A DNA stretch of 64,000 nt, taken from Patescibacteria group bacterium (GTDB taxonomy: Bacteria; Patescibacteriota; Patescibacteriia; CAIXNZ01). Positions 1-56,878 of the stretch are shown one piece after another. A program made the translations under genes and the position numbers. The stretch covers positions 39,834 to 103,833 of the forward strand of contig JAQTMG010000003.1 in NCBI GenBank assembly GCA_028714455.1, in the 5' to 3' direction. The notes beneath the pieces were generated by a model. The model did not search any database and was not told the origin of the DNA. It worked only from the letters and a program-made list of their open reading frames with translations. Position 1 is the first letter of the stretch; every line of letters starts with the position of its first letter.

Positions 1-438
1 CTTGATAATCTCATCCAATTTAGCTTTAATTTGCTCATCAGATATTGTTACTCCGACTTGGTCGGCTATTTTATACATGAAAATATTATCAATCAGCCGA
101 TCTTCCAAAACCGTCTTTTTGAGCTGCGCCAGATCCGGAATATTGGTAAACCCAGCCTTTCTTTGAATATTGAGATATTTATCAGCGGCTTCAAAATTTC
201 TCAAGTAATCATAAAATGGAATAAATTGGCCGTTGACGCGAGCGGCCGGGTACGGAAAAATTTTCGTGATTGCTTCGATGGCGGCGCCGTTCCAGTCAAG
301 TTTATAAATGCCCCAAGCCACCACACCTAAAAATAAAATCAGTAAGATAAGCAAGCCGGCAATTATTCCCGAAATAAATTGAAAAAGAGTTAGTTTCTTC
401 TGCTCTTTTTTGAAAGGATTTTGTAATTTGAATTTCAT
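1..438 (-). CDS. Partial (3'-truncated at window edge) membrane-anchored SurA-N-like chaperone / PpiC-type PPIase-like protein
   Basis: Reverse-complement translation from ATG at 438-436 gives MKFKLQNPFKKEQKKLTLFQFISGIIAGLLILLILFLG.. (N-terminal TM anchor) followed by a SurA-N-like region. It is antisense to the listed +ORF 31..330, which is therefore spurious. Confidence 0.4.
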   Translation of the reverse strand, partial: MKFKLQNPFKKEQKKLTLFQFISGIIAGLLILLILFLGVVAWGIYKLDWNGAAIEAITKIFPYPAARVNGQFIPFYDYLRNFEAADKYLNIQRKAGFTNIPDLAQLKKTVLEDRLIDNIFMYKIADQVGVTISDEQIKAKLDEIIK

Positions 439-858: not shown

Positions 859-1599
859 TTAGCGCCTTGTAAACTTAACTTCCTCCATTTCGTCATCGTC
901 CTTTTTATCGCTCTTTTTCAGCTCTTCCGCCAGCATTTTCTTCAGACTTAATTCGCCATAAGTCTCGCTGTACTCCTCAACCAGCTCCGCCAGATTATAA
1001 TCGTCATACTCGGCCATCTTGTCTTGGTTCAAAAATTCATCGGTTAATTTTTCTTTGGCCGCTTCACCGACATTGCTCACCTTTTTAACTTCTAACTTTT
1101 TGCCGGTATCTTGCCTAATCATGTCAACTAGCGTCTGGTTCACCCTGGCCACCTCCGTTATATTTTTGACTACCAGGTCAACGCTCTCGGCCTTAATCCT
1201 GATGGTGCCTAATTTCAAAACTGATTGCCAAAAGCCCTTAACCGAATAAGAGATATCAGAAATTTTTTCATAAGGTATCTCGGAAACGATTTTCTCAAAA
1301 AATCCTTTTTGATCTATGTCAACCACGCGCTGGCTGGTTATCAAAAAAATATTATTGTACCAAATATAAAATTCGCGACTGCCGTAGACTATGCCGGTCA
1401 GCAATAAGGCGCAAAACAAAGCCACGCCGATCTGATCAAGATAGTTAAAAAGCGGATACATCAGAAAAAATGAAAGAAAAATAATCACGACCGTGACGAG
1501 AATCTGTTTCGCGTAGCCGATCAGATGATGGTGTAAAAGCATAATCGGTTCTTCGTCTTCTCGCAGGCTTACTTTTTTAAGAAATTTTTCATTGTTCAT
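859..1599 (-). CDS. Membrane protein with bacterial PH (YdbT/bPH_2-like) domain and acidic C-terminus
   Basis: Two TM helices near the N-terminus, a PH-like region (FLITSQRVVDIDQKGFFEKIVSEIPYEKISDISYSV) and a D/E-rich tail. Confidence 0.4.
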   Translation of the reverse strand: MNNEKFLKKVSLREDEEPIMLLHHHLIGYAKQILVTVVIIFLSFFLMYPLFNYLDQIGVALFCALLLTGIVYGSREFYIWYNNIFLITSQRVVDIDQKGFFEKIVSEIPYEKISDISYSVKGFWQSVLKLGTIRIKAESVDLVVKNITEVARVNQTLVDMIRQDTGKKLEVKKVSNVGEAAKEKLTDEFLNQDKMAEYDDYNLAELVEEYSETYGELSLKKMLAEELKKSDKKDDDEMEEVKFTRR

Positions 1600-1604
1600 A
1601 TTTT

Positions 1605-2777
1605 TTATATAATATTTTTTTCGCTGAATTTGTAGCGCTCGACGCCTTTAATCGCCGCTTCAACTAATTTCTCAAAATCCCAATTTTTTTCTCTCTCAAG
1701 AATTAATTGGAGATTGGCGCGGGTGACCGGATGTTTGGGCATGTAAAGCGAACAGCAATCGTCAAAGGGTTGGATTGAAAGATTGTAGGTCTCTATTTTT
1801 CTGGCGATTTCGATTATCTCTTCTTTATTAAAACCAATCAGCGGCCTGAAAATCGGCAGGCTCGTTACTTGCGAAACGGCTGTTATGTTTTCAACCGTCT
1901 GGGAAGCCACTTGGCCCAGACTTTCGCCAGTCACCAGGGCTAAAATTCCTTCCGTGACTGCGATTTTCTGCGCCAGGCGCAACATCATTCTTCTGTAAAA
2001 TATAACTCGATAGTCATCTGGCGCAACTTTCAATATCTCTTTTTGAATTTCCAAAAAAGGTACTACATACAGCAAGGAATCGTGTTGGTAGCCATTTAGG
2101 ACATTTACTAATTCTTTAACCTTCTCCCTGTTTTCTTTCGGCGTTGCCGGATAAGAATCAAAATGCACGAAAACTATCCGCGCTCCCCTTTTCTGCATTA
2201 AATTAGCGGCGACTGGCGAATCAATACCGCCAGATATCAGACAAAGTAAGGAACCGGAAACGCCGACTGGCAAACCGCCGCGGCCAGAAATTTTGTCAAA
2301 ATAGAGAAAGGCGTAATTATCCACGATGTCTACAAAGCAATTCAAATCAAAATCTGTCAAATCGACTTTCTTTTTCATTTTCTTCATAACAAACTCACCC
2401 AGTTTCTCGGCTATCTTTTGTGAATTGAGAAAAAAACTTTTCTGCGCCCGCCTGACCGTAATTCTGAAAGTCTTGAATTTCTTTTTCTTGACCAAACCGT
2501 AAAGATCTTTCTTTATAATTTCCAGATCCTGCTCCGAATTCCAGGCAAAAGCAAAATATTCAATACCAAACACCTTTTCCAGCTGGTGCTTAATTTTTTC
2601 TAAATCAAAATTCTCTTCTGTCAAAATAATGATCCTGCCGTGCTGATGTCTTAACCAAATCTTACCAAAATCTTTCAGGGCTCTTCTGATGTTTTCAATC
2701 AACTTTGCCTCAAAAAATTTGCGGTTGCCCAGTTTCAGCGCTATCTCGCCATAATGGATGACTATGTATCTCTGCAT
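1605..2777 (-). CDS. thiI: tRNA 4-thiouridine synthase / tRNA sulfurtransferase ThiI
   Basis: THUMP-like N-terminus and a PP-loop motif (SGGIDSPVAA) over 390 aa, the typical ThiI architecture. Confidence 0.85.
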   Translation of the reverse strand: MQRYIVIHYGEIALKLGNRKFFEAKLIENIRRALKDFGKIWLRHQHGRIIILTEENFDLEKIKHQLEKVFGIEYFAFAWNSEQDLEIIKKDLYGLVKKKKFKTFRITVRRAQKSFFLNSQKIAEKLGEFVMKKMKKKVDLTDFDLNCFVDIVDNYAFLYFDKISGRGGLPVGVSGSLLCLISGGIDSPVAANLMQKRGARIVFVHFDSYPATPKENREKVKELVNVLNGYQHDSLLYVVPFLEIQKEILKVAPDDYRVIFYRRMMLRLAQKIAVTEGILALVTGESLGQVASQTVENITAVSQVTSLPIFRPLIGFNKEEIIEIARKIETYNLSIQPFDDCCSLYMPKHPVTRANLQLILEREKNWDFEKLVEAAIKGVERYKFSEKNII

Positions 2778-4867: not shown

Positions 4868-4883
4868 AAATTTTGCCATCAAA

Positions 4884-4910
4884 GGCGGAAGCAATTCCGC
4901 CTTTTTTATT
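4884..4910 (+). terminator. Rho-independent terminator
   Basis: Perfect hairpin GGCGGAAGCAATTCCGCC followed by TTTTTTATTTTT. Confidence 0.6.
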
Positions 4911-5029
4911 TTTAAATCTTGACTAAAGTTGAAAAATATATTAAAATACGAAGGCAGTATTGTTAACAAAAATCTTTATTTTTGTTATACTTATTTTAAC
5001 CAATTACTGGTTATTTTTTGTTTCAGCAT

Positions 5030-5104
5030 CGCGGGGTAGAGCAGTGGCAGCTCGCCGGGCCCATAACCCGGAGGTCGCGGGTTCAAATCCCGCCCCCGCA
5101 ACCA
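5030..5104 (+). tRNA. Initiator tRNA-fMet (anticodon CAT)
   Basis: Cloverleaf with a C1:A72 mismatch, three G-C pairs in the anticodon stem, loop CCCATAA, T-arm GCGGG-TTCAAAT-CCCGC and an encoded CCA. It is near-identical in architecture to E. coli tRNA-fMet. Confidence 0.85.
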
Positions 5105-5307
5105 GATTCATGGTGGGGGTTTCCGCCGTAGGCGGACCCGCCTCTGGCGGGCAAATCCCGCCCCCGCAACCAGATTCATGGTGGGGGTTTCCGCCGTAGG
5201 CGGACCCGCCTCTGGCGGGCAAATCCCGCCCCCGCAACCAGATTCCTGGTGGGGGTTTCCGCCGTAGGCGGACCCGCCTCTGGCGGGCAAATCCCGCCCC
5301 CGCAACA
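5105..5307 (+). repeat. Three tandem 68-nt direct repeats, each ending in the last 20 nt of tRNA-fMet (AAATCCCGCCCCCGCAACCA)
   Basis: Units at 5105-5172, 5173-5240 and 5241-5307. The third has an A>C change and lacks the CCA. Each unit is GATTCATGGTGGGGGTTTCCGCCGTAGGCGGACCCGCCTCTGGCGGGC plus the tRNA 3' end. Confidence 0.9.
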
Positions 5308-5327
5308 ATGAAAATTAAAATTATTTA

Positions 5328-5400
5328 GATCCGGTAGCTCAGTTGGTAGAGCACCTGCCTTTTAAGCAGGGGGTCCTGGGTTCAATCCCCAGCCGGATCA
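5328..5400 (+). tRNA. tRNA-Lys (anticodon TTT)
   Basis: GATCCGG acceptor, GCTC/GAGC D-stem, anticodon loop CTTTTAA, T-arm CTGGG-TTCAATC-CCCAG; no CCA encoded. Confidence 0.9.
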
Positions 5401-5606
5401 TAGGTTAATGGCTTGCCAAGACTGGCAAGCTTTTTGCGACCCCCTGCTTTATCAAAGCTACACAAAGAAGTCCTGCCTGCCCGCCGTAACGAAGTGAAGG
5501 CGGGGGTTCAATCCCCAGCCGGATCATAGGTTAATAGCTTGCCAAGACTGGCAAGCTTTTTGCGACCCCCTGCTTTATCAAAGCTACACAAAGAAGTCCT
5601 GCCTGC
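5401..5606 (+). repeat. Duplicated ~100-nt segment (tRNA-Lys 3' half + 80-nt downstream unit containing a terminator hairpin)
   Basis: The 80-nt unit TAGGTTAAT(G/A)GCTTGCCAAGACTGGCAAGCTTTTTGCGACCCCCTGCTTTATCAAAGCTACACAAAGAAGTCCTGCCTGCC appears at 5401-5480 and 5527-5606. Between the two copies a second copy of the tRNA 3' end (GGGGTTCAATCCCCAGCCGGATCA, 5503-5526) is preceded by a CCCGCC..GGCGGG hairpin. Confidence 0.85.
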
Positions 5607-5637
5607 CTCTAGCGAAGGCAGACCGGATTATTATAAG

Positions 5638-5664
5638 AATTCCCCCGTCACGGGGAATTTTTTG
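5638..5664 (+). terminator. Rho-independent terminator
   Basis: ATTCCCCCGTCACGGGGAAT hairpin followed by TTTTTT. Confidence 0.55.
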
Positions 5665-5751
5665 ATATTGACATTATCAAAATAATGTGCTAGAATTATT
5701 AATTAGTTGACAGAATCAAAACCAAAAATAAAATCCAAAAGGAGGGAAAAG

Positions 5752-6456
5752 ATGAGGACATTTACCGTAATCACTTCTTTAACCGACGGAGTTCTGAAGC
5801 ATGAAATTTTCGATTTCCTCATCCCCAAAAAGAATGAGGAACGGGCGGGAGAATGGTTTCTCCCTTTCGGTTCCACGCGGATTCCTCTTGGCAAGAGGGA
5901 TCTGGACAAGCTCCTGCAAACTGGCTGGAAGAAAATCCCGTGTTCTGCCAGGGGTGAGAGAAGGTGGAGCGGCCAGAAATCGGCCCAACCGCTGATCTGC
6001 GACAAGTGCGGAGAAAAATATGGCAACTGGCAGCCTTACAAAATCGGATTCGAATGCTTTCACCCGGCAAACGGCGAGATGGTCTTGAGCGACAAAATCA
6101 TCAGTAACGCCTTCTGCCTAAAACTGCGCGACAAGTACACGGAAGAGTACAGCGGTAAGCTTCTGCTTGTCGCGCCTGACAAGGAGCAGGAGGAAGCGCT
6201 CATTCACTGGGATCTCTCGGATCATGCGGCGCTCTTCGAAGATGGGCGAATCATAGCCCAAGACACCTGGCCGTTTCGAACCAACCATTATCTCGTTGCT
6301 CTGAAGCCAGGTTCGAGCCTGCCCGCCATCAAGTCTCATGAACAATCCGCCGCTTACACTCTGGTTCTTTCTTTCGACGGCAACAGCGTCCACGTGACCA
6401 AAAAAGAGTTGGTTGCGAGACAAGAAGTCTCTGACCAGGCTCAAATCTCGGCCTAA
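5752..6456 (+). CDS. Hypothetical protein with Cys cluster (CDKCGEKYGNW..ECFHP), in a GC-rich island
   Basis: AGGAGGG RBS before ATG 5752. Local GC content is clearly above the window average and no known family was recognised. The ORF track gives a longer form from 5707. Confidence 0.5.
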   Translation: MRTFTVITSLTDGVLKHEIFDFLIPKKNEERAGEWFLPFGSTRIPLGKRDLDKLLQTGWKKIPCSARGERRWSGQKSAQPLICDKCGEKYGNWQPYKIGFECFHPANGEMVLSDKIISNAFCLKLRDKYTEEYSGKLLLVAPDKEQEEALIHWDLSDHAALFEDGRIIAQDTWPFRTNHYLVALKPGSSLPAIKSHEQSAAYTLVLSFDGNSVHVTKKELVARQEVSDQAQISA

Positions 6457-10025: not shown

Positions 10026-11189
10026 ATGCAATGGCCCAAAATCGCCTTAACAACCATTGGCTGCAAGCTTAATCAATCAGAAATTCAAGATTTAAAGCAG
10101 GATCTAATTGATGCCGGTTATCTTATTGTTGATAAAAATGAACCGCACGATTTGCATATTATCAACGCCTGTTCAATTACTCACGGCGCCGAACAAATCA
10201 CCCGCCAAAAAATCCGCGAAGCTAAATCTAAAAATCCAAAACTTCAAATATTTGTCATGGGTTGTTTGAATCAACCAATTCCAGAAATCAATAAAGTTTT
10301 CAAAAACAAAAAGGAGGTTTTAAAATTTATCAAAAAAATATATAAAAATACCCAAATTCGTAATTCAAAATTCATAATTCATAATTCCAGAACAAGAGTT
10401 TTGATCAAGGTCCAAGACGGCTGTAACTTCAATTGTGCCTATTGCATCATTACCAAATTCCGCGGCCAATCAAAATCAATTTCTCCAAATAAAATAATCT
10501 CTCAAATCAAACAAAAAGAAAAACAAGGCGCCAAAGAAATCGTTTTAGTCGGCGTTAATATTTTGCTTTATAAATTTGGCACAACCGATTTAGCCGCGCT
10601 GGTTAAAAGAATTTTAGATGAAACAAAAATCCCACGCATCAGATTCAGCTCGCTTGACCCTCGCCTCGTCAATCCCACTTTCCTCAATTTATTTAGGAAT
10701 AAACGCATCTGCCCACATTTGCATTTATCTTTGCAATCCGGCTCCAATAAAATTCTCAAATTAATGAACCGCCATTATACCGCGCAAAGATATTTACAAA
10801 TTATCAAAACCGCCAGAAAAATAAATCCGCTGACTTCAATAACAACGGATATAATTATTGGCTTCCCCGGCGAAACAGAAAAAGATTTTCAAGATACCTT
10901 AAATCTGGTCAAAAAAATAGATTTTCTTAAAATTCACATCTTCCCCTATTCAGCAAGAGGCGCGAGTAAAGAGCAAGGGCAAATTAACGAGAGCGTTAAA
11001 AAACAAAGATTTATAAAATTAAATAAACTCGCCGAAAAACAAAGCCAAAAATTTCTCAAAAAAATGAAAGACAAAATCATGCCCGTGCTTTTTGAACAAA
11101 AAGAAACCGGCTACACGCCAAATTACATTTTGGTCAAAAAGAAAACAAAACAAAATCTGGCGAATAAAATTATAAATGTGAAAATATAA
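10026..11189 (+). CDS. Radical-SAM methylthiotransferase (MiaB/RimO/MtaB family; MtaB-like)
   Basis: N-terminal MTTase domain (IALTTIGCKLNQSE) and a radical-SAM CxxxCxxC motif (GCNFNCAYCII). The tract IRNSKFIIHNS, encoded by an AATTCAT repeat, looks like an insertion. Confidence 0.75.
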   Translation: MQWPKIALTTIGCKLNQSEIQDLKQDLIDAGYLIVDKNEPHDLHIINACSITHGAEQITRQKIREAKSKNPKLQIFVMGCLNQPIPEINKVFKNKKEVLKFIKKIYKNTQIRNSKFIIHNSRTRVLIKVQDGCNFNCAYCIITKFRGQSKSISPNKIISQIKQKEKQGAKEIVLVGVNILLYKFGTTDLAALVKRILDETKIPRIRFSSLDPRLVNPTFLNLFRNKRICPHLHLSLQSGSNKILKLMNRHYTAQRYLQIIKTARKINPLTSITTDIIIGFPGETEKDFQDTLNLVKKIDFLKIHIFPYSARGASKEQGQINESVKKQRFIKLNKLAEKQSQKFLKKMKDKIMPVLFEQKETGYTPNYILVKKKTKQNLANKIINVKI

Positions 11190-15849: not shown

Positions 15850-15990
15850 TGTTCACCGGGGTTTGGGGGCGCAACTAACCTACGTTAGCCGTAGCTAACT
15901 TCGGTTAGCGAAGGCTAAGCGTCTATTTGCATTTGCGACCCCAAAAGTTTTTGGTACTTTTTGCTTACAAAAAGTACGAAAATAATTATT
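15850..15990. ncRNA. Candidate structured small RNA / leader element (unknown class)
   Basis: An outer stem GGGGGCGCAA..TTGCGACCCC encloses nested hairpins GTTAGC-CGTA-GCTAAC and CTTCG-GTTAG-CGAAG. It is followed by the palindromic hairpin GTACTTTTTG-CTTA-CAAAAAGTAC, in a 297-nt gap between murD and the next gene. Confidence 0.25.
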
Positions 15991-19051: not shown

Positions 19052-20281
19052 TTATTTAATCGGCGACATCTTGCGCAAACGGGAAATAATGACGGGCAAA
19101 ACCTCAATTACTTTATCGATTTCTTTTTTGGTCGTAAACTTGCCCAAAGAGAAACGCAGCGAAGCATGGCAAACTTCCGGCGACAAACCCAGCGCCAATA
19201 GAACATGCGAGGGCGCCAGGGAGCCAGAGGCACAGGCAGAGCCCGTGGAAGCCGCGATGCCTTCCAGATCCAGCATCAGCAGCATACTCTCGCCTTCTGC
19301 GTTTTTAAAACTCAAATTAGCGTTGGCCGGCACCCTTTTCGCCATGTCGCCGTTAACGATAGTCTCGGGAATTTTTTTAAGCAAATTTTCAACCAAATAA
19401 TCTCTTAGCTCGCCGATTTGTTTATTAATCTTTTCATTTTCTTTTTTATCGTTGATCATTTCTACGGCTGCGCCCAAACCAACAATCTGCGCCACATTAT
19501 AAGTGCCTGGTCTAATATTATATTCTTGATGGCCGCCAAAAGTAACCGCGCGTAGTGGCGTTCCTTCTTTTATGTAAATCGCCCCAACGCCCTTGGGCCC
19601 ATAAATTTTATGGCCTGAAATTGTAATTAAATCAACGTTTAAATTCTGCACCTTCATATCGCAATAGTGGGCGGCTTGCACGGCATCGGTGTGAAAATAA
19701 ACCTTATCAAAATTTCCAAATTTAGAATTTTTCTTGGCGCGTTCCTCATTTATCTTTTTGATGGCTACTCCGATTTCTTTAATGGGCTGAATCGTGCCGA
19801 TCTCATTATTCACGTACATTATGGAAACCAAAATTGTATTCTCTTTAATAGCTTTAACAACCTCATCAACCTCAACTAACCCCATTTTATCAACCCCAAT
19901 AACAGTCAGTTCTGCTAATCCTTCTTTTTCTAATTCTCTGCACGGTTCCAAAACAGCCGGATGTTCAATGGCCGAAGTTATAATGTGAAATTTTTTGTTC
20001 CAGTTTTCTTTTTTGGCGTAACGAAAAGCCATCAAAAGACCGCGCAAAATCAGATTATTACTTTCTGTGGCGCCAGAAGAAAAAATAACCTCTTTAAATT
20101 TACAGCCAAAGAGTTTGGCGACTTCTTCACGCGCCCAGTCAACGCCCTTCATGGCCTCCTGACCGAAACTATGCTGCGATGAAGCGTTGCCAAAAACATC
20201 TTTATAATACGGCAACATCTTTTTCAACACGATTGGGTCAACCGGTGTTGTGGCGTTATGATCTAAATATATTTTTTGCAT
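19052..20281 (-). CDS. iscS: Cysteine desulfurase (IscS/NifS family)
   Basis: PLP-lysine motif SGHKIYGPKGVGAIY, catalytic Cys region SSGSACASG, 409 aa. Confidence 0.85.
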   Translation of the reverse strand: MQKIYLDHNATTPVDPIVLKKMLPYYKDVFGNASSQHSFGQEAMKGVDWAREEVAKLFGCKFKEVIFSSGATESNNLILRGLLMAFRYAKKENWNKKFHIITSAIEHPAVLEPCRELEKEGLAELTVIGVDKMGLVEVDEVVKAIKENTILVSIMYVNNEIGTIQPIKEIGVAIKKINEERAKKNSKFGNFDKVYFHTDAVQAAHYCDMKVQNLNVDLITISGHKIYGPKGVGAIYIKEGTPLRAVTFGGHQEYNIRPGTYNVAQIVGLGAAVEMINDKKENEKINKQIGELRDYLVENLLKKIPETIVNGDMAKRVPANANLSFKNAEGESMLLMLDLEGIAASTGSACASGSLAPSHVLLALGLSPEVCHASLRFSLGKFTTKKEIDKVIEVLPVIISRLRKMSPIK

Positions 20282-21134: not shown

Positions 21135-21192
21135 ACCCTATATCCTAATTTTGATTTCAGAATTCGTAATTCATAATTCATAATTCGAGTTT

Positions 21193-24589: not shown

Positions 24590-24662
24590 ATTGATTGAAT
24601 AAGAAATACGAAATAAAAAATACGATTTGTTTATTTCCTATTTCCGATTTCCTATTTCTTAA

Positions 24663-30403: not shown

Positions 30404-30496
30404 ATATCAATTTGCAATAAATTTTCAATTTAACAATTTTCAATTTTTTGGCAGTTGATCATTGATAATTGATAATTTAATGAAAATTGTAAATTG

Positions 30497-31348
30497 TTAA
30501 TTGTTAATTGATTTAATATATTCTTTTAACGCCTTCTGCCAATTCCTCGTTTTCGGCAATTTTGTGTTTATTAAAGACGAGTACGGCGGCCTTTTGGCCG
30601 GCAAAGGATATTCTGCCGTCGAGCAGGGCCTGACTTTAACTTTCAGCTTCTGCAACTTGCAGATCTTTTTCGCAAATTCATACCAGGTAATGCCGCCTTT
30701 TTTCGTCTCGTTGGTGATGTGATAAATACCAAAAGGCAAATCATTATTTAAAATATATAAAATTTGCCTGGCCAAGTCAACCGTGTAAGTCGGCTTGCCA
30801 AACTGATCATTGATAACTTTCAACTCTTTTTTTTCTCGGCCCAAGCGTGAAATCGTATCCACGAAATTTTTGCCATGTCTGCCATAAAGCCATGAAGTTC
30901 TAACCAAATAATATTTATCTAGCTTCGCCAGTGCTTTTTCGCCAAGCAGTTTTGAGGCGCCATATATGCTCGATGGCCAAAATTCTTGCGAATTTTCAAT
31001 GTAACCTTTCTTATTTTTTCCGTCAAAGACATAATCAGTGGAGATCTGGACAAAAATGGCCCCTATTTTCCTGGCTATATCAGTCAGATAACCAACTGCT
31101 AACCCGTTCACCATCGTGGCCTTATCAACCTCCTCTTCGCAAGCGTCAACATTAGTAAAAGCAGCGCAATTAAGTATAATATCTGGTTTCAAATCGCCAA
31201 TTTTTGAGTCAACCTGATTTTTATCAATAATATCAATATCATCAAAATCCCAAAGCGTCAAATTATAAAACGAGAAAATCTTGGCTAAATCAGTGGCCAG
31301 CATTCCCTTCGCTCCCAAAATCAATATTTTTTTATTCTTATCTAGCAT
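30497..31348 (-). CDS. rfbD: dTDP-4-dehydrorhamnose reductase
   Basis: KILILGAKGMLATDL Rossmann motif and RmlD-like length and motifs. Confidence 0.7.
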   Translation of the reverse strand: MLDKNKKILILGAKGMLATDLAKIFSFYNLTLWDFDDIDIIDKNQVDSKIGDLKPDIILNCAAFTNVDACEEEVDKATMVNGLAVGYLTDIARKIGAIFVQISTDYVFDGKNKKGYIENSQEFWPSSIYGASKLLGEKALAKLDKYYLVRTSWLYGRHGKNFVDTISRLGREKKELKVINDQFGKPTYTVDLARQILYILNNDLPFGIYHITNETKKGGITWYEFAKKICKLQKLKVKVRPCSTAEYPLPAKRPPYSSLINTKLPKTRNWQKALKEYIKSINN

Positions 31349-36832: not shown

Positions 36833-36879
36833 AAAAAAATTATTATTCCTTTCACTAATACCTAATCCCTAATACCCAA

Positions 36880-37296
36880 TCACTTAATATTTTCCCTTAT
36901 TTTTTGGGAAACCTCTTCTGCCTCTTTGGCTTTATAACTTTTACCTGGCCAGTGCTGTAAGCCATCCTCGGCAGTTCTGGGCACGATATGCCAGTGTAAA
37001 TGTGGCACAATCTGACCGGCCAACCTGCCGTTATTTAATTCCAGATTAAAGGCATCATAACCCAGGCCAGCCAAAACCGCCTTGGCAATTTTTTGTGTGG
37101 CCAAAATCATGGCTGCCAATGTTTCTTCATCGGCATCCAAAAGATTAACAAAATGTTTTTTGGGCATCACCAATGCGTGGCCGGGATTAACCGGGTGAAT
37201 ATCCAAAATCGCGAGAATTTTATCATCTTCATAAACTTTCGTAGCTGGTATTTCGCCGGCGATAATTTGGCAAAAAAGGCAATCTTCATTGGGCAT
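36880..37296 (-). CDS. HIT-family nucleotide hydrolase
   Basis: Histidine triad HLHWHIV. Confidence 0.8.
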   Translation of the reverse strand: MPNEDCLFCQIIAGEIPATKVYEDDKILAILDIHPVNPGHALVMPKKHFVNLLDADEETLAAMILATQKIAKAVLAGLGYDAFNLELNNGRLAGQIVPHLHWHIVPRTAEDGLQHWPGKSYKAKEAEEVSQKIRENIK

Positions 37297-37794: not shown

Positions 37795-38460
37795 TTATTT
37801 TTTAATATCGTCAGTTAGTCGGGGATAATTCAAACTGGTATATTGCCAATTTTCAGGCAAGCCATGCTTCAAATGATTATAAACTGTATAATTATAATGA
37901 TGATCCCAGTCCCTTTGCTTTTTTAAATGATTTTGATGAAAGCGGATAAAGTGGTCGTAAAAAGATAATTGCCATTTAAATTTTGGGTAAGGACTGCTAT
38001 TGCCAAATTTTTTTATAAATTCTTCCTTATAATGTTCAAGGTTTATTTTCCTCTCATTAAAATCATCAAAATTCCCATTAAATAAATTAAGCAACCTCAT
38101 CCTCATCCTTCGTAGGCGAAACGACGTCGTTTCGCCTACGAAGAGCGGTGAATTTTGATTAATCGTATATCCCATCACAATATTAACATTGCGTGAAAAA
38201 TTTTCTTTTAACGATTTGATTATTTTTGAAATATTATATTGGTTATTAGGTTCAATTATTAAATTAATATGATCATAAATTATGGAAAAGGCATACAGCT
38301 TAAATCCCTTTAATTGTTTACAAATCCCTAAATTCTCAATAAACAAGCTGCAAAAAATCGTCTCTTTAAAATATGGGAAATTATTCTTCGTCTTGATTAC
38401 GATGTAATATATAGCACCTGGAAAATATATCCGCTTAGAATAATTTTTGTGCAATTTCAT
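37795..38460 (-). CDS. IS200/IS605-family Y1 transposase-like protein (RAYT-like, HuH degenerate) carrying an in-frame palindromic insertion
   Basis: N-terminal YYIVIKTKNNFPYF, a degenerate HuH (DHINLI) and a C-terminal SFYDHFIR..Y motif shared with the paralogs at 53983 and 56300. A 38-bp perfect palindrome CTTCGTAGGCGAAACGACG/CGTCGTTTCGCCTACGAAG at 38111-38148 is translated in-frame (SFRLRRMRMR). Confidence 0.5.
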   Translation of the reverse strand: MKLHKNYSKRIYFPGAIYYIVIKTKNNFPYFKETIFCSLFIENLGICKQLKGFKLYAFSIIYDHINLIIEPNNQYNISKIIKSLKENFSRNVNIVMGYTINQNSPLFVGETTSFRLRRMRMRLLNLFNGNFDDFNERKINLEHYKEEFIKKFGNSSPYPKFKWQLSFYDHFIRFHQNHLKKQRDWDHHYNYTVYNHLKHGLPENWQYTSLNYPRLTDDIKK

Positions 38461-44030: not shown

Positions 44031-45256
44031 TTAATATTTCCCAATATTTTTTACGTAAGTTCCTGCTTCGCCCGAATAACGAATCAAAAAAACGTCATAA
44101 AGAACCGCGTCTACCTCTTGCCACAAATTCTCGGCCGTTTCTCTAATAATGAAACACTGCATGCCGCTTAGCTTAAGATACAACGGCCAAATTTTTGTCT
44201 CAAAATCATCCTTTTGTTCAAGCGCTTTTTTTAGGTTAAAAATGGTCAGGCGCAAACGCAACTTAAACTTCCGAGTATTGCGCACCTGGCCATCAACCAC
44301 ATTCAGTCCTAACGTGTGCAGAATATGCCCTCGTCTGGCAAAATATGATTTATGCAAATAGTAGCGCTGATAATAGGCTCCTTTATTTTGCCACCAACCA
44401 TCTGGGTCAGGCGCCTCTTTCAGTTCATAACCCCTTTTAGCGATACGAAAAACCGCTGAAATAACGGGCGCATGCCACACAATGCAACCGCGATATTTCT
44501 CAATATCTTCCTGACCCGCTGGTTTCACAAAGTAATCGTCAGCGGAGGGATCATCTGGCCGTTCTTCGCCGCGCTCAATGTGTCTTTTTTTTGTTTCCGG
44601 CCAAAATTCTGGCGCTGTGATAAAAATGTTGTCCGCGTAACGTACGTAAGTACCCCTGATGTTCTTGGCTAGCTCGGAAAGCTCGTAATCAAAGGGTTCA
44701 AAACAAAAATCAAACAAGCGCGGGCTGGTTGGCGCGCCTTGTGGCAAACCAAAAGCCGGTAGCCCCTTTTTCTTTTGATTAAACCAGGTCGTCAAACAGG
44801 TCAAATAATAAGAGGCGTAATAACCGTACTTTTTTGACTTGAAAAAATTGAAGACCGCGCGACCGCTTGTCGAAGGAAAAGCATCCTTCACGTCAGTCGT
44901 AAAAACCGCCTGGTCTGCCTTAGCAATAGCCAATGCCGCCTCTTTGACTCCACCGCCAGAAAATCCATAGACATTTCTATGACGGTCCAGCGGCTCAAGA
45001 ATATTTTTGTTGACAGCCCGCTGAATTGTCATCAAATCAGGGTGCGGAATCTGTAAAATTCTTCTGCCGCCGCTTCTTTTAGCAATTGTAATGGTTGAAT
45101 AAAGCCATGGACTCCTGACAATTGCCGCCCACAAAATTCTACGGAATTTTTCGAAATCATTAAAAGGATAATTCAGTTCAGCGAACAAATACCAGGCTGC
45201 TTTTCTGCCTGATTCCCTTAATAAGGGATTTTTAATGCGCTCACGCGATTTCAACA
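44031..45256 (-). CDS. Stand-alone reverse transcriptase (retron/DRT-like; motif C = YADN)
   Basis: RT motifs in order: 1/2 RRILQIPHPDLMTIQRAV, A FTTDVKDAF, B' GLPQGAPTSPRLFD, C YVRYADNIF. The proposed start is TTG 45256, 8 nt after AGGAGG; the ORF track's ATG 45383 would add 42 aa lacking an RBS. GC content is elevated. No maturase, endonuclease or other fused domain was recognised. Confidence 0.75.
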
Positions 45257-45294
45257 ATATTATCACCTCCTTTCCATGTTTTTTGTTTTCAAAG

Positions 45295-45695
45295 AAAAGG
45301 GAGGGGTAAATTCCCCTCCCACCGCTGGTTACTCGCGAATCGCAAGCTGTGCGTGTACCGATCAAGAACCGGGTGATTTGCATATTGCCGTCAGAATTCT
45401 GACAGCCCCTTTCGGCTATTTTAGGATCTCTTAGGGTTCCGGCAATAAAGCTAACTGTCTTGATCTAATTTCGGATTTTAGGGTTAGGGAGGGGTGCAAG
45501 ATTTATACATTTACTTCAAGTTTTGGTTATCCCCTCTCCTTCTAATTAAACCGAATTACCGAGCCAGTTACCTTCGCCGAAAATTATCTAGAGAAGGATA
45601 CGCAGTTTATGTACCTAACTCAAGTTTCGGCTAATCCTTCTCTTTATCCTATTTGGCCTCAAAGCTCGCTAACCAGCGAATGATAATACTTTAGT
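45295..45695 (-). ncRNA. Candidate RT-associated structured ncRNA (about 380 nt) directly upstream of and co-oriented with the RT
   Basis: Minus-strand promoter-like TTGACT-17 nt-TAAAGT at 45716-45688. Two paralogous long hairpins have conserved loops (AAACTTGA..GTA.ATAAA) and different, individually complementary stems (GAGAAGGAT/ATCCTTCTC versus GGAGAGGGG/CCCCTCC). There is a 14-bp palindrome GTCAGAATTCTGAC. The 3' end is a GC-rich hairpin GGGAGGGG-AATTTA-CCCCTCCC followed by TTTTCTTTG just before the RT RBS. Confidence 0.4.
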
Positions 45696-53982: not shown

Positions 53983-54564
53983 TTAATATTCAATGAAATC
54001 TGTTTTAAAAATTGATTGATCACCGATTTCATAATTTCGCCAGGAAGAATAGGGATATTTTGAAATATCTTCAACTAAGCGAGCAGAAATCGGATTGTTG
54101 TGGATATAATTTAATTTTTCGTTAAATTTCTTGCCAGAATAGATATTAAAGTCGTAAAAACTGGGCTGCCAGATTCTCCTCATCCTCCGGGTAGCCAAGG
54201 CCCCTGCGCCTTGGCTTTTTAAGGGCAAGGCGTATGAGCCTTGCCTACCTATAAAAGAGATGGGTGGGTCTTGCCGACCCGACATGGAATCAAATAAATA
54301 TTCATTAATCAACCTGGAACTATATCCTTTCACCCCGTGCATTATTCTGGAAATGGTTAATTTCGGATTTTCAAAATAAACCAACAAATGGACATGGTCA
54401 GGCATAATACAATACCCATATATCTTCAAATTAAATTTTTTCCGATAATAATCGAGGTTATCTAAAAACAACCGACAGCATTTATCATCTGTAAAAAATT
54501 TTTGTCTGCCGTGTGTATTGGCCGTTACAAAATGGATATGACCCAAATCATTAAATCTGTGCAT
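53983..54564 (-). CDS. IS200/IS605-family Y1 transposase-like protein (RAYT-like) with in-frame structured insertion
   Basis: HuH motif MPDHVHLLV and C-terminal YDFNIY..NYIHNNPISARL (RAYT-like). A roughly 110-bp insert at 54178-54290 contains hairpins CCAAGGC..GCCTTGG and GGCAAGGC..GCCTTGCC and is translated in-frame (RRMRRIWQ..). Confidence 0.6.
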   Translation of the reverse strand: MHRFNDLGHIHFVTANTHGRQKFFTDDKCCRLFLDNLDYYRKKFNLKIYGYCIMPDHVHLLVYFENPKLTISRIMHGVKGYSSRLINEYLFDSMSGRQDPPISFIGRQGSYALPLKSQGAGALATRRMRRIWQPSFYDFNIYSGKKFNEKLNYIHNNPISARLVEDISKYPYSSWRNYEIGDQSIFKTDFIEY

Positions 54565-54575
54565 CTAATTTCCGT

Positions 54576-56273
54576 CTACGTGTGCGGCACAATTACAATC
54601 TTATCCTCGCTAATCGAAGTCGCGTTCGCCGTTGCTGTCAGCGGACTGAAATCTCCCACTAACGCGATGTCCGCGCCAACATTATAGTTCACGAAAAACG
54701 CGTCGGCCACGTCTTGGACTAAAGTGGCCCAATTATCGCCATAAAGAGCTTTGGCCAGCGCTTCGGTTTTTATCCAGCGCAAAGTACCGTGGGCATCAAC
54801 CGCGTACACTTTCGGATCAGTTGTGATTTTTATCAATTTTACACCCGGCTTATACGTCACATTGCCGCCGATGGAGATGGCCGCGAGTTGCGCGTCGGTA
54901 ATCGTCTTGACTGTTGAAAAATCCGGATACCAGGTCAAATACGTATTGAGCGTGGGAAAAACATAGCGCTTGCCGTCAGTGGCATAATAATAAACAGCCG
55001 GACCCGATGCCTTAATCAAATCGCCGTAAGAAATATTGGCCCCGACCAGTCCGGGCGCGTTAATCGTAATTGAGAGAGTGCCGATAACCTGATTATCCAC
55101 TTTAACTGATACTGTCTTAACGCCCAAAGAGGTGGATCTTGCTTCAAAAATTATTTTGCCGTTCACGTCTGAATTATTATTAGGAATAGTGATGATAACT
55201 CCCGAACTGGCGTCGACCACGATTTGTTTATTGGGAAGTGGCTGCCCCATGGAATCCTTAATGGTCACGGTAATGGTTGATTTATCTAAGCCATCATTGG
55301 CCAAAACGATTTTATCGGCCGCGACCGAGGAATTGGAGACCGAGAATGTCTGCGCGTGCGCGCTGACTGTAATCGAGCCTGTCTGCGTAAAATTTCCCCA
55401 GCCATCATGGGCCTGCAAACTGATGGTGTGCGTGCCGTCGCTGATGTTTTCCCAGTCGTAACGCCAGGTGTAAAAATTAACATCCATTTCCTGCACTGGA
55501 TATTCCTGACCGTCAATAAAGATATTGAAATCGCGGATATAACTGCCGCCCTCGTCTCTGGCCATGCCCTGGATCATTAAGCTGTTGGTGTTTAAAATCT
55601 GGCCGTCAAATAAATTGGTAATAACCAGTTTGGGTCCGAACATATCAATGGAATAGGTGCTGACTACCTGGCTGTTCGCGTTTGTCACATTGTCATCGGT
55701 CGGTCCGTTATTTTTGGCAGCCGTGAAAACGCCGAAATCGCCCACGTCAAAAAGGCCATTGGCATTATTGTCCGTAAGAATCGGAATCTGCATCAAAATC
55801 GTGGCCGTACTCGTGTAGTCGGAGAATGTTTCTACGGAGACAAAAAATCTTTTGCCAATGCTTGCGCTTTCATTCAAATTTTGAATATACCAAGATTCAT
55901 AAGTCGTGGTGTAATTAAAATTGCCGATTACCCGGTCAACACCCATGCCTTGAAATCCGGCTGGCCCGTCATCGGCCCAGAGCGTCATGTATTTTATATG
56001 GCTTAAATAATTGGCCGTGCCCAGATTTTTCAAGCCGAGAGCGTTAAGCGTGTCTGTGCCGCTGATATTAAGCGTGAAATCCATAATCAGGCCGTCAAAA
56101 GTCGCTCGATAAAAAGTCGCGTAAGGCGCCTGCAGGTTAATAACTGAACTGGTGGTAAAGGCCAGAGATGGCTGCGCGCCCAAAATCGTCAGCGCCAAAA
56201 TCGCGATGATGATAAAAATTTTTCTTCCGCCAAAGGCAGACCCGCCTCTGACGGGCATAATGTTTTTTTGCAT
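54576..56273 (-). CDS. Membrane-anchored surface protein with Ig-like (Big) domains and C-terminal shared ~115-aa domain
   Basis: N-terminal TM/signal, Big-like beta-sandwich repeats and a C-terminal block AVYYYATDGKRYVFP..DPKVYAV..LRWIKTE. Confidence 0.5.
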   Translation of the reverse strand: MQKNIMPVRGGSAFGGRKIFIIIAILALTILGAQPSLAFTTSSVINLQAPYATFYRATFDGLIMDFTLNISGTDTLNALGLKNLGTANYLSHIKYMTLWADDGPAGFQGMGVDRVIGNFNYTTTYESWYIQNLNESASIGKRFFVSVETFSDYTSTATILMQIPILTDNNANGLFDVGDFGVFTAAKNNGPTDDNVTNANSQVVSTYSIDMFGPKLVITNLFDGQILNTNSLMIQGMARDEGGSYIRDFNIFIDGQEYPVQEMDVNFYTWRYDWENISDGTHTISLQAHDGWGNFTQTGSITVSAHAQTFSVSNSSVAADKIVLANDGLDKSTITVTIKDSMGQPLPNKQIVVDASSGVIITIPNNNSDVNGKIIFEARSTSLGVKTVSVKVDNQVIGTLSITINAPGLVGANISYGDLIKASGPAVYYYATDGKRYVFPTLNTYLTWYPDFSTVKTITDAQLAAISIGGNVTYKPGVKLIKITTDPKVYAVDAHGTLRWIKTEALAKALYGDNWATLVQDVADAFFVNYNVGADIALVGDFSPLTATANATSISEDKIVIVPHT

Positions 56274-56299: not shown

Positions 56300-56878
56300 T
56301 TAATTTAAAATGTTAAATTCAACCGCCTCTTTGGGATTATCACGATCAAATTCCCAATTTACCGGATTATTGGCAATATATCCTTTTATCCGCGCGTAAT
56401 CTTCATCGTTTTTGATAATGTGTTCGTAATAATTATCTTGCCATTTGAAATCAAGGTTATTTTCATGGCATTTGCGCGTAACGGCACCTTTAAATGTATT
56501 AACGACAGACGATAATGATTTTGGTTTGACGTGGCCAAATTTATTCCGTGTAGAGACAGGGTATACCCTGTCTCTACAATTTTTTGCAAAATCATTTTCG
56601 TCGCATTCAATTTCAATTATCCCATGAACATGATTTGGCATGATTATCCAATCGTCCAATCTTATATTATTAAAATGCTTTGGTATCTCCAACCAACAAT
56701 CAAAAACGACTTTCCCAACCTCCGATAAATAAACATTATTATCCTTAATTTCACCCAAATCGTATATTCTGTCTTTGGTGCAAATTGTCACGAAATAAAA
56801 ACCTCCTTTGGCATAATCCCATTCCATCAAACGCATACTCGCCACGCGATATTTATTTTTAAAATATTCGTCCCCCAT
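56300..56878 (-). CDS. IS200/IS605-family Y1 transposase-like protein (RAYT-like) carrying a copy of the GTAGAGAC palindromic repeat in-frame
   Basis: HuH motif MPNHVHGII and C-terminal WQDNYYEHIIKNDEDYARIKGYIANNP (RAYT-like). The core GTAGAGACAGGGTATACCCTGTCTCTAC lies at 56549-56576 inside the ORF, translated RDRVYPVSTR. Confidence 0.6.
   Translation of the reverse strand: MGDEYFKNKYRVASMRLMEWDYAKGGFYFVTICTKDRIYDLGEIKDNNVYLSEVGKVVFDCWLEIPKHFNNIRLDDWIIMPNHVHGIIEIECDENDFAKNCRDRVYPVSTRNKFGHVKPKSLSSVVNTFKGAVTRKCHENNLDFKWQDNYYEHIIKNDEDYARIKGYIANNPVNWEFDRDNPKEAVEFNILN
56549..56576. repeat. Structured palindromic repeat core, copy 4 (intragenic)
   Basis: Identical to the core of copy 3; no outer GGGGCGAAAACG inverted repeat. 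Confidence 0.85.

Follow-up and report, generated by a model that had tools for sequence, protein, structure and literature searches.

A repeated tRNA-Lys gene end with a terminator-bearing trailer and a GC-rich hairpin element at its junction in a Patescibacteria genome

Introduction

In a 64-kb stretch of DNA from a Falkowbacteria-like genome of the Patescibacteria (hereafter the window, 64,000 nt at its full length), the last nucleotides of the tRNA-Lys gene and the sequence following them are present twice, which raises the question of how a gene end came to be copied together with a terminator and what kind of element, if any, left the copy behind. An earlier note, made from the sequence only, had described this repeat, called the tRNA pair to which it belongs a recombination hot spot and pointed to integrase att cores as its possible source. 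The repeat was followed up here by its layout, by the state of the site in related genomes and by the distribution of the hairpin found at its junction; related loci and contigs are named by handles (L003, L175 and so on) where they have to be told apart.

Results

Layout of the repeat

Table 1. Positions of the features discussed, numbered from the first nucleotide of the window
Feature	Positions	Strand	Evidence
Initiator-type tRNA-Met(CAT)	5030-5104		ARAGORN; Rfam
tRNA-fMet array, 3.3 copies of a 68-nt unit	5084-5306	+
tRNA-Lys(UUU), intact, no encoded CCA	5328-5400	+	ARAGORN; Rfam RF00005, 74.8 bits
A1, 3'-terminal 23 nt of tRNA-Lys (G51 in the T stem through discriminator A73), copy 1	5378-5400	+
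D1, 81-nt trailer of unit 1	5401-5481	+
Intrinsic-terminator hairpin and T run of D1	5411-5435	+
Stretch GACCCCCTGCTT of D1, complementary to tRNA positions 37-48	5438-5449	+
Last 8 nt of D1, TGCCTGCC, which are the 5' tail of hairpin element H1	within 5401-5481	+
H1 hairpin element, 31 nt, joining unit 1 to the second tRNA-end copy	5474-5504	+
A2, exact second copy of the 3' 23 nt of tRNA-Lys	5504-5526	+
D2, second copy of the 81-nt trailer (terminator hairpin 5537-5561)	5527-5607	+
S2, short variant hairpin CTGCC-TCTAGCGAA-GGCAG, after unit 2	5599-5621	+
Probable leftover of displaced tRNA end (ACCGGAT, cf. GCCGGAT) and native terminator TTCCCCCGTCACGGGGAATTTTTT	5622-5665	+
H2 double-hairpin copy, 45 nt past the stop codon of the RAYT-like gene	56225-56257	+
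RAYT-like Y1 (HUH) transposase gene	56300-56878	-	Pfam Y1_Tnp 25.7 bits, cutoff 23
H1, the other copy in the window, upstream of the RAYT-like gene by about 100 nt	56977-57007	+	R1 25.5 bits, E 5e-4

The repeat finder, TRF and direct comparison all gave a direct repeat of 104 nt (5378-5481 and 5504-5607) with a period of 126 nt and one mismatch, each copy being made of 23 nt of the tRNA-Lys end, from the T stem onwards, and an 81-nt terminator-bearing trailer (Table 1). The recurrence of the 23 nt downstream and the terminator hairpin within the duplicated unit are as the earlier note had described them, with coordinates right to within 1 nt; the single G/A difference that it reported was also found (G5410 vs A5536), the trailer being 81 nt long rather than the 80 nt given. 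The last 22 nt of tRNA-Lys occur exactly twice in the window, with none expected in shuffles. The terminator hairpin, GCTTGCCA-AGAC-TGGCAAGC followed by TTTTT, folds as DNA at -9.3 kcal/mol (z = -3.7), and A5536, which is the state of L003, adds an A-T pair to its stem.

Between the two copies, a GC hairpin is closed by the 22-nt spacer at 5482-5503 (CGCCGTAACGAAGTGAAGGCGG), and the final 8 nt of the trailer serve as its 5' tail. The 126-nt unit consists of the tRNA-Lys last 23 nt, the trailer and the H1 stem-loop. After unit 2, a regex scan showed the short variant S2 in the place of the full H1 (weak match of 10.4 bits to R1, the covariance model of H1; DNA fold of -6 kcal/mol). The segment beyond S2 probably includes a remnant of the original tRNA-Lys end, and its native terminator (5640-5665, also found by the terminator scan) is the homologue of the terminator directly 3' of tRNA-Lys in L175. 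The distal trailer (5444-5481) could be read as a degenerate copy of tRNA positions 27-51, with matches at both ends (CCTGC, GTCCTG); the beginning of the promoter downstream, in the form seen in L177, can be aligned to this stretch too, and the stretch shares TTATCAAA with window positions 5668-5696.

On the 3' side of the array lies a GC-richer gene of 234 aa, and the GC of 5.7-7.0 kb is 0.45-0.53 vs about 0.33-0.40 in the flanking non-tRNA segments (4.2-5.0 and 6.8-7.6 kb), in agreement with the GC-rich adjoining segment noted before. In Rfam 15 only the tRNA passes; permissive searches, run on 4900-5750 and on 20 H1 loci, yielded no credible match to hairpin or unit. A tRNA-like mini-gene was considered and rejected: in the tRNA-fMet unit, GGTGGGG can pair with the acceptor 3' strand, but the L003 unit is mismatched at that place and the Lys unit has no 5' acceptor partner.

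A sister array at tRNA-fMet

The neighbouring initiator tRNA carries an array of its own, the unit of which is formed by the 3' end of the tRNA, starting in the T loop and 19-21 nt long, a 19-nt spacer and a 30-nt double hairpin, H2. One such unit is present in L003 and none in L002, L004, L175 and L177, the array size among genomes being 0, 1 or 3 units. In some relatives the tRNA pair is inverted with respect to its flanks.

The site in related genomes

L175 is the closest relative (86% identity in the Mur ligase); there, tRNA-Lys is directly followed by the homologue of the 5640-5665 terminator, and the empty-site comparison that had been proposed earlier was thereby provided with an empty site. 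In L177, the first 43 nt of the trailer follow tRNA-Lys with neither duplication nor hairpin, and the terminator stem carries a compensatory change of T-A to C-G. L003, a separate assembly, has one unit, with the same 126-nt spacing between its two tRNA-Lys 3' ends, both of which match its own tRNA allele; this unit is followed by a terminator that in L002 stands directly 3' of tRNA-Lys. In L002 and L004, the hairpin modules are on the 5' side of tRNA-Lys instead. Derivation of the 3'-side structure from the 5'-side one by inversion via acceptor-stem repeats was rejected, as the sequences do not fit; no inverted tRNA fragment was found in the 5'-side insert of L002 (longest match 6 nt). Altogether, the tRNA-Lys ends are in six different states in six related genomes, the window, assembled with two units, included; the 126-nt unit is absent, single or double, and no larger insert lies between the repeats. 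The description of the tRNA pair as a recombination hot spot is borne out. No exact-protein matches were found for the 137-aa protein, the Mur ligase, P0001 and P0026.

H1 as a mobile hairpin family

H1, of sequence TGCCTGCC-CGCC-GTA-AC-GAA-GT-GAA-GGCGGG, is scored at 39.9 bits (E 2e-7) by R1 at 5474-5504, and at least 120 metagenome loci match the motif that defines the family, TGCCTGCCCGCCG-N10-13-AGGCGGG. The structure of H1 is conserved, since its inner 3-bp stem shows compensatory changes: 28 double-sided changes were counted vs 8.7 +/- 5.5 in shuffles, 0 of 500 of which reached the observed number. Host contigs range in GC from 0.29 to 0.64. Of the canonical metagenome copies, 40 out of 75 lie in long open frames that are real genes, among them IleRS-like, AspRS-like, enolase, P-type ATPase, AdoHcyase and glycosyltransferase genes; there, H1 is inserted in frame, is read in several frames and occupies linkers or N-termini. 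Direct repeats of 7-11 nt adjoin about one in ten copies (33 repeats of at least 8 nt observed vs about 9 expected). H1 is a conserved, structured element present in many uncultivated bacteria, and it is mobile in its own right. Only chance-level matches, in GC-rich records, were obtained in cultured plasmids and phages.

In the 64-kb window, R1 finds H1 only at the tRNA-Lys junction and at 56977-57007, the latter copy being about 90% identical to metagenome copies. H2 outside the tRNA-fMet array is likewise restricted to one position, 56225-56257, where 33 nt are 88% identical to the tRNA-fMet unit (E 0.002) and form an in-frame insertion, PVRGGSAFGG, in the N-terminus of a Big_1 protein gene. 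H2 is a discrete insertion there; the syntenic Big_1 gene in L173 lacks it.

RAYT-like genes in the window

These only other copies of H1 and H2 in the window flank the same gene (56300-56878), one on each side, the gene resembling those of REP-associated tyrosine transposases (RAYT). The best NCBIfam match of its product is REP_Tyr_transpos (63 bits, below the cutoff of 80), and it has 1764 homologues, some of them named RayT by JGI. The window holds three Y1_Tnp genes in all: REP_Tyr_transpos scores 112.9 on the product of 53983-54564, above the cutoff, and is also the best match, below cutoff, for 37795-38460. H1 or H2 was not seen flanking the RAYT homologues of L168, L169, L171 and L173, and a tblastn search found no RAYT within a few kb in the 120 H1 loci.

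Hairpins at the ends of other tRNA genes

The same architecture, in which a partial tRNA end, a GC hairpin at the break and an intact gene stand together, was found at several other tRNAs. Partial copies with a GC hairpin at the break occur at the tRNA-Lys 5' end in L002 and L004, at both ends of tRNA-Cys in L086, at tRNA-Thr in L164 (with H1 itself at the break), at both halves of tRNA-Ser in L147 (with an H2-type double hairpin) and, with other GC hairpins, at tRNA-Ala in L051 and tRNA-Gln in L168; in L114, H2 is joined to a tRNA fragment running from the T loop to the 3' end. H1 was repeatedly located at the very point where an intact tRNA gene and a truncated copy of its end are separated. 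By the same test, hairpin-capped partial ends are present at 6 of the 27 tRNAs in H1-bearing and RAYT-bearing loci (L048-L173) and at none of the 11 tRNAs in unrelated loci. Several hairpin types are clustered together in L114 and L064. Reading of the junctions revealed no common target sequence before the breakpoints (TCCT, GGTT, CTTG, GACT).

Discussion

A probable scar of a hairpin element

Taken together, the position of a mobile hairpin at the junction, its recurrence at broken tRNA ends and the empty and one-unit sites of relatives favour, with a probability of about 55%, the reading of the repeat as the scar of a small selfish GC-rich hairpin DNA, a REP/RPE-like element, at the end of a tRNA gene. 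With equal confidence, the hairpin element is linked to the insertion or duplication at the tRNA end, the unit having then been amplified by unequal recombination. Under this mechanism, the initial insertion or duplication at the stem-loop of the tRNA would go back to the hairpin element, either because a RAYT-type HUH transposase moved H1 on single-stranded DNA or because replication stalled at the hairpin, and only events leaving an intact tRNA copy could have survived. The unit sits inside the T-stem region of the gene; the tRNA-end copy that it brings completes a functional tRNA with a working terminator, and the displaced tRNA end would now lie behind the hairpin. The second unit of the window may have arisen by unequal recombination or slippage between the 23-nt repeats, and the structure as a whole would have no function beyond supplying the terminator.

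Several observations sit uneasily with this reading. RAYT homologues in four other loci (L168, L169, L171, L173) stand without flanking H1 or H2, and no RAYT lies near any of the 120 H1 loci. The breakpoints share no target sequence, and H1, unlike classical REP and IS200/IS605 elements, is often intragenic and has short flanking repeats at some sites. The hairpins behind the two units are not alike (H1 vs S2), and a simple tandem duplication explains the window incompletely. As long duplications (at least 14 nt) accompany only 3 of 119 H1 copies, the association with tRNA could be secondary, a redundant copy having existed before the hairpin landed in it. Between the window and L003, conservation of the trailer equals that of the tRNA (73/81 vs 65/73 identical), and the trailer's 12-nt stretch complementary to the tRNA changes together with the tRNA between the two; a purely neutral scar predicts neither the conservation nor the joint change.

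Tandem duplication, integration and function as alternatives

A plain tandem duplication, in which replication slippage or unequal crossing-over acted on a locus that is structured and highly transcribed and the hairpin was a passive bystander or a later insertion into a redundant copy, is unlikely. It would account for copies that are 99% identical, arranged head to tail with a constant period, for the 3.3 identical units of the tRNA-fMet array and for the variation of copy number among relatives; the resemblance of the trailer, possibly of its distal part too, to the native tRNA-Lys flank as in L177 and the rarity of long flanking duplications at H1 copies are also in its favour. It does not, however, explain why the same hairpin families stand exactly at the junction in about 12 independent tRNA-end duplications in different organisms. 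The L003 unit, moreover, is followed by a different native terminator, unlike what an in-place tandem duplication would give, and in the window the first and the last unit are followed by different sequences.

An integrase reading, along the line to which the earlier note pointed, takes the repeats for remnant att sites of an island or prophage that carried the tRNA-Lys 3' end, entered the T arm, duplicated a 23-nt core and was later deleted almost entirely. The likeness to tRNA-targeting tyrosine integrases is real: a direct repeat starting in a tRNA stem-loop, with a copy of the 3' segment restoring the interrupted gene, is the classical signature of integration, the breakpoints of the related cases fall in the T loop and the anticodon loop, which are the usual crossover sites, the displaced fragments of L086 and L004 deviate at acceptor positions from the intact gene, as pieces of another allele would, and the 234-aa gene 3' of the array is GC-richer than its surroundings. 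Nevertheless, this origin was judged improbable and the claim was not upheld. Only 103 nt lie between the repeats, with no cargo, and no tyrosine or serine recombinase was found among about 50 window ORFs scanned with Pfam or NCBIfam; no more core copies were detected beyond the 234-aa gene or elsewhere in the window. Since the same small unit is kept in L003, this origin would call for separate, almost complete deletions at Lys, fMet and several other tRNAs. Tandem arrays of units are a further difference, and the mirror-image duplications at 5' ends (L002, L004, L051, L168) are not what such integrases produce. An integrase att core does not fit because the junction is filled by H1, a mobile hairpin found elsewhere in the window only beside the RAYT-like gene.

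A functional RNA or regulatory module, in which read-through transcripts would use the trailer and the additional tRNA end (for instance for processing or 3' protection, or as a decoy or anti-tRNA), was considered quite improbable. Such a role would be in keeping with the tRNA-like conservation of the trailer, with compensatory changes that keep the hairpin stems paired and with the 12-nt complementarity to the anticodon stem and variable region, which was unmatched in 2000 shuffles and includes a matching C/T change. Against it, the complementary stretch of each unit lies behind a strong terminator; the stretch is dispensable in L177 and L175, the complementarity in L177 amounting to only 6 nt; the covariation comes from one site in two genomes; and there is no Rfam match, no tRNA-like fold of the units kept in L003 and no conserved downstream gene.

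A wrong expansion of the repeat in assembly is hardly credible: although the window is part of a metagenome-assembled genome (MAG) and a Logan contig from another run ends at window position 5618, immediately past copy 2, the two copies are told apart by one base and by the hairpins that follow them, the 126-nt period is shorter than a read pair, and the same architecture was assembled independently in another species (L003).

Comparison with known elements

The preferred reading, that of a hairpin-element scar, invites comparison with known small palindromic elements. Nothing on such hairpin elements in Patescibacteria was found in the literature searched. Like REP/BIME sequences with their RAYT (TnpA-REP) transposases, and like REPINs, H1 and H2 are short GC-rich imperfect palindromes in an AT-rich genome, occur in clusters of several hairpin types and are accompanied in the window by RAYT-family genes, one of them hairpin-flanked; H1 keeps its structure by compensatory changes. 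H1 as an ordinary dispersed REP of the host genome was nevertheless rejected, its copy number of 2 in 64 kb being very low; the sequence moreover appears in contigs of GC 0.29-0.64 and is not species-specific, and other RAYT loci are without H1 or H2. Classical REP and IS200/IS605 elements are extragenic and make no target duplication, whereas about half of the H1 copies are inside coding genes and some have flanking repeats of 7-11 nt. To our knowledge, a link to duplicated tRNA ends is not a described property of REP elements.

The likeness to Rickettsia palindromic elements (RPEs) lies in palindromes without coding capacity, apparently selfish, that are inserted in frame in housekeeping genes in different frames and also in or beside RNA genes; H1 in frame in conserved genes and H2 in a Big_1 gene whose L173 counterpart lacks it are of this type. 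RPEs are, however, roughly 100-150 nt long vs about 30 nt for H1 and H2, whose hosts are uncultivated Patescibacteria-like lineages, and the likeness is one of features.

With the subterminal hairpins of the miniature elements derived from IS200/IS605 (PATEs), H1 has in common the direct orientation, the presence of the Y1 HUH transposase family in the genome and a right-hand hairpin foot that coincides with the element boundary. It differs in having flanking duplications and no fixed target tetranucleotide (TCCT, GGTT, CTTG and GACT at the junctions), and the left end of the unit would fall in host tRNA sequence.

Mitochondrial GC clusters, double-hairpin elements and repetitive hairpin-forming elements, as presented in the titles and abstracts of two papers (PMC4478555, PMC2800124), are also tiny GC-rich hairpins, sometimes double, of AT-rich compact genomes; they are found between and within genes, and their mobility was deduced from presence/absence polymorphism. 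H1 and H2 differ from them in being bacterial and in having candidate transposases nearby, and common descent is unsupported; tRNA-end duplication is unmentioned in those titles and abstracts.

Going considerably further, it is possible, though doubtful, that H1 and H2 represent an undescribed class of hairpin elements of about 30 nt in Patescibacteria-like bacteria, mobilised on single-stranded DNA by RAYT-type Y1 transposases. Such elements would enter tRNA stem-loops as miniature gene-restoring cassettes that bring a terminator and a duplicate of the gene end, sometimes a whole replacement tRNA (L147), and would also colonise housekeeping proteins in frame.

If the link to tRNA ends is true, it shows how tiny selfish hairpins can persist in streamlined genomes with single-copy tRNA genes, their survival depending on association with events through which the gene end is rebuilt and a terminator provided. 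It would also account for the places where assemblies of Patescibacteria MAGs break and for their odd "partial tRNA" calls, and flag insertions of 10-11 residues in housekeeping proteins as element-derived, and H1, H2 and the tRNA T arm would be a concrete substrate for testing the many RAYT-like genes of these bacteria. As the copy number of the unit varies among close relatives, it could serve as a strain marker.

Organization of the tRNA-Lys repeat

The 3' end of the tRNA-Lys gene forms part of a direct repeat, each copy of which consists of the final 23 nt of the tRNA, from G51 in the T stem to A73, and an 81-nt trailer, the copies being separated by a 22-nt spacer that folds with the last trailer bases into a GC-rich hairpin of 31 nt, H1. 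The earlier note had described this duplication, and re-derivation of the coordinates confirmed it to within one base; the 64-kb window holds no tRNA-Lys 3'-end copies beyond these two. Copy 2 is followed by a shorter hairpin (S2), the sequence ACCGGAT, similar to the tRNA end GCCGGAT, and a second terminator, and the hairpins behind units 1 and 2 are not alike. The 126-nt unit (tRNA end, trailer and H1 stem-loop) restores the tRNA-Lys gene end and supplies a terminator. Behind tRNA-fMet lies an array of 3.3 identical 68-nt units, composed of the tRNA from T loop to 3' end, a 19-nt spacer and a 30-nt double hairpin, H2. A contig of an independent run (Logan, SRR22315509) equals the window from 5618 onward, with PvlArgDC and neighbouring genes identical, and terminates exactly behind repeat unit 2; a repeat at which short-k assemblies break would be expected to give such an end.

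Within the trailer, GACCCCCTGCTT (5438-5449 and 5564-5575) is complementary to tRNA-Lys positions 37-48, a 12-nt length reached in none of 2000 shuffles. The trailer of the relative L003 carries GACCCTCTGCTT, which fits that genome's own tRNA-Lys, and the complementarity in L177 is just 6 nt. Possible sources of this complementarity are a decayed copy of the 5' strand of the anticodon stem, selection acting on read-through RNA, and chance at a single site. From the window to L003, the trailer shows the same degree of conservation as tRNA-Lys itself.

Features of the window and of the loci compared with it (L numbers)
Locus	Feature	Coordinates	Strand	Remarks
Window	tRNA-Met(CAT), initiator-type	5030-5104		
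Window	tRNA-fMet array	5084-5306		
Window	tRNA-Lys(UUU)	5328-5400		
Window	Direct repeat	5378-5481, 5504-5607		104 nt, period 126, single mismatch G5410/A5536
Window	Intrinsic-terminator hairpin at trailer start	5411-5435		GCTTGCCA-AGAC-TGGCAAGC-TTTTT
Window	Spacer between copies	5482-5503		
Window	H1	5474-5504, 56977-57007		
Window	S2	5599-5621		
Window	Second terminator	5640-5665		
Window	234-aa gene	5752-6456		
Window	RAYT-like Y1 transposase genes	37795-38460, 53983-54564, 56300-56878	-	
Window	Retron-type reverse transcriptase	44031-45383	-	450 aa; retron St85 model 111.7 bits, below cutoff
Window	Big_1-domain secreted protein	54576-56273	-	
Window	H2 outside the array	56225-56257		
L175 (with L174, L176)	tRNA-Lys locus			Mur ligase 86%; terminator AATTCCCCGTGTTGCGAGGAAATTTTTT directly after tRNA-Lys, homologous to window 5640-5665; empty site; fMet units absent
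L177	tRNA-Lys locus			Mur ligase 84%; gene order of window; fMet-AAGC-Lys, first 43 nt of trailer, then promoter of 229-aa gene
L003	tRNA-Lys locus			Mur ligase 82%; one unit: tRNA-Lys, 81-nt trailer, hairpin, second copy of own tRNA end (GGGTTCGATCCCCAGCCGAGTCA), different terminator
L002	tRNA-Lys locus			Mur ligase 83%; directly after tRNA-Lys, the terminator found at end of L003 structure
L002, L004	Upstream of tRNA-Lys			Mur ligase 83%, 72%; same hairpin, opposite orientation, preceded by copy of tRNA's first 13 nt
L164	tRNA-Thr			12 nt of 5' end plus at least 42 nt of flank; H1 loop (GTAACGAAGTAAA) nearly that of window
L086	tRNA-Cys			5' fragment with H1; 3' fragment from T loop with H2-like double hairpin
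L147	tRNA-Ser	1560-2230	-	5' half (positions 1-35) and double hairpin, 290 nt, intact gene, same double hairpin, 3' half (36-end)
L051	tRNA-Ala	330-420		27-nt copy of 5' end; GC hairpin of other sequence
L168	tRNA-Gln	19870-19975		12-nt copy of 5' end; GC hairpin of other sequence
L114	tRNA fragment			T loop to 3' end, joined to H2

State of the locus in related genomes

The comparative empty-site analysis proposed for the locus was carried out and revealed an empty site in L175. L177 has neither duplication nor hairpin at tRNA-Lys, and its terminator stem shows a compensatory T-A to C-G change. The L003 trailer is identical to that of the window at 73 of 81 positions. At tRNA-fMet the window has 3.3 units; L003 has a single unit, with compensatory changes in its hairpin, and L002, L004, L175 and L177 have none. 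With respect to its flanks, the tRNA pair of L002 and L003 has the opposite orientation to that in the window, L004, L175 and L177. Since relatives thus differ in number of units, side of the hairpin and orientation of the tRNA pair, the locus is indeed a recombination hot spot, as had been claimed. The unit has been added to a simpler ancestral arrangement; its copy number is variable and its boundary carries a mobile, structured hairpin. In each genome the two tRNA-end copies carry the acceptor allele of their own host (CCGGATC in the window, CCGAGTC in L003), a sequence agreement that would fit either duplication of host sequence or gene conversion.

In L002 and L003 the block promoter-tRNA-fMet-tRNA-Lys-terminator (window 4868-5752) is inverted with respect to the Mur ligase and PvlArgDC. 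The adjoining 137-aa and 234-aa genes are found in only some of the relatives, the latter being without family match and of higher GC than its surroundings.

Truncated tRNA ends elsewhere

Several tRNA genes in contigs bearing H1 or RAYT (REP-associated tyrosine transposase) genes are likewise accompanied by a truncated copy of their end, and the point of truncation coincides with a GC hairpin; in all cases this hairpin abuts the truncated copy on the side toward the intact gene. Such end copies accompany 6 of 27 tRNAs in H1- or RAYT-bearing loci (L048-L173) against 0 of 11 in unrelated loci, the same test being applied to both. In L086, both fragments of tRNA-Cys have G-C at 6:67 and the intact gene has A-T. 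The two tRNA-Ser halves of L147 break at the identical anticodon position, and it looks as if the old gene had been split by a hairpin-bounded segment that brought in a replacement tRNA. The hairpins of the Patescibacteria-like contigs L168 and L051 differ in sequence, and therefore the phenomenon is not bound to one hairpin family.

H1 as an element of its own

A metagenome scan with the pattern TGCCTGCCCGCCG-N10-13-AGGCGGG returned at least 120 loci. Among the matches listed, the loop follows the consensus [A/T]AGCYTYRGCGN, canonical copies reside in contigs of 0.29-0.64 GC, and 40 of 75 of them fall inside spans of 150 or more codons free of stops. The inner 3-bp stem shows covariation: double-sided changes number 28, where shuffles give 8.7 +/- 5.5 (0/500), a signal that collapses in slid controls. 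Pfam identifies the H1-bearing spans as genuine genes, for class I and class II aminoacyl-tRNA synthetases, P-type ATPase, AIR-synthase-related protein, AdoHcyase, glycosyltransferase and enolase; in enolase, H1 lies between the two domains. Across these genes, several frames of the element are used. Direct repeats of 7-11 nt abut about one tenth of the copies among the matches listed, where flanking repeats of at least 8 nt number 33 against about 9 expected. No H1 family exists in Rfam, and plasmid and phage collections gave no real match. The H1 covariance model finds exactly two copies in the window and one each in L002, L003 and L004, adjoining tRNA-Lys.

In-frame H1 copies of 32 nt occur in conserved housekeeping genes of L049, L074, L099, L105, L125, L153, L154 and others, contributing about 11 residues such as PAFAKASAGRQ or LPARRSLGEGG.

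Association with RAYT-like genes

The window, part of a contig from a metagenome-assembled genome, represents ordinary chromosomal DNA of a Patescibacteria bacterium near Candidatus Falkowbacteria, with genes for DivIC, ThiI, two Mur ligases, MraY, FtsW, MurG, CTP synthase, L9 and sugar-nucleotide enzymes. An integrase/att origin, which the earlier note had raised for the duplication, is not supported, no tyrosine or serine recombinase being present among the approximately 50 window ORFs scanned. Within the 64 kb, neither hairpin type occurs except at the two tRNA genes and to either side of the RAYT-like gene at 56300-56878, where H1 lies about 100 nt upstream and the sole H2 outside the array lies 45 nt past the stop codon (88% identity to the array double hairpin over 33 nt, E 0.002). 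This H2 is a 30-nt in-frame insertion (PVRGGSAFGG) in the N-terminus of the Big_1-domain protein, and the syntenic gene of L173 is without it; H2-type hairpins are also present in L086, L105, L114 and L147. The flanking hairpins are the strongest, if indirect, pointer to the RAYT family as the enzyme involved, a pointer weakened because RAYT homologues in L168, L169, L171 and L173 adjoin hairpins of other kinds or none. Conservation of the RAYT-then-Big_1 gene order in L173 suggests that this RAYT-like gene is resident rather than mobile. The 64 kb hold three RAYT-like genes, although the genome is small and streamlined.

Relation to known systems and proposed origin

The closest known kinds are REP/BIME sequences with RAYTs, Rickettsia-type in-frame palindromic elements, integrase-type tRNA att duplications, and mitochondrial GC clusters and double-hairpin elements (PMC4478555, PMC2800124). 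The tRNA-Lys unit mimics the gene-restoring logic of integrative elements but differs from att duplications in that an integrase is absent from the ORFs scanned. Unlike REPs, the hairpins are low-copy and frequently intragenic, and unlike IS200/IS605 derivatives they have flanking repeats and no fixed target. In its behaviour the hairpin element resembles a REP- or RPE-type selfish hairpin, and the finding falls among known kinds of selfish palindromic DNA. The literature searched, a limited collection, yielded no description of such elements in Patescibacteria; the main interest lies in the connection, in streamlined genomes, of tiny hairpin elements with RAYT-like genes and with tRNA gene ends that have been rebuilt.

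In the likeliest course, the hairpin element would first have caused an insertion or duplication at a tRNA stem-loop, acting as single-stranded DNA through a RAYT-type HUH transposase or by replication stalling. Only events leaving an intact tRNA copy would have persisted, because the genomes appear to hold few or single copies per tRNA gene. Unequal recombination between the 23-nt repeats probably produced the second unit, and the far end of the array, with S2, ACCGGAT and the native terminator, is presumably the original tRNA end in decayed form. As candidate routes, the whole 126-nt unit could have been actively transposed, the hairpin could have inserted into a partial duplicate already present, or homologous recombination, with a single crossover inside the repeated tRNA end, could have carried the unit from strain to strain.

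Other repeats in the window

AT-rich 7-8-mers are repeated in short tandem runs in intergenic parts of the window (10355-10387, 21156-21186, 24632-24658, 30455-30512, 36855-36889) and directly beside many metagenomic H1 copies (flanks in L079, L117, L062 and L065). The intergenic stretch 15850-15950 contains repeated GTTAGC/CGAAGG motifs and a weak H1-like match (15888-15915, 12 bits), behind which stands TTTGCGACCCC, a sequence shared with the tRNA-Lys trailer; this stretch could be related, in degenerate form, to the hairpin elements.
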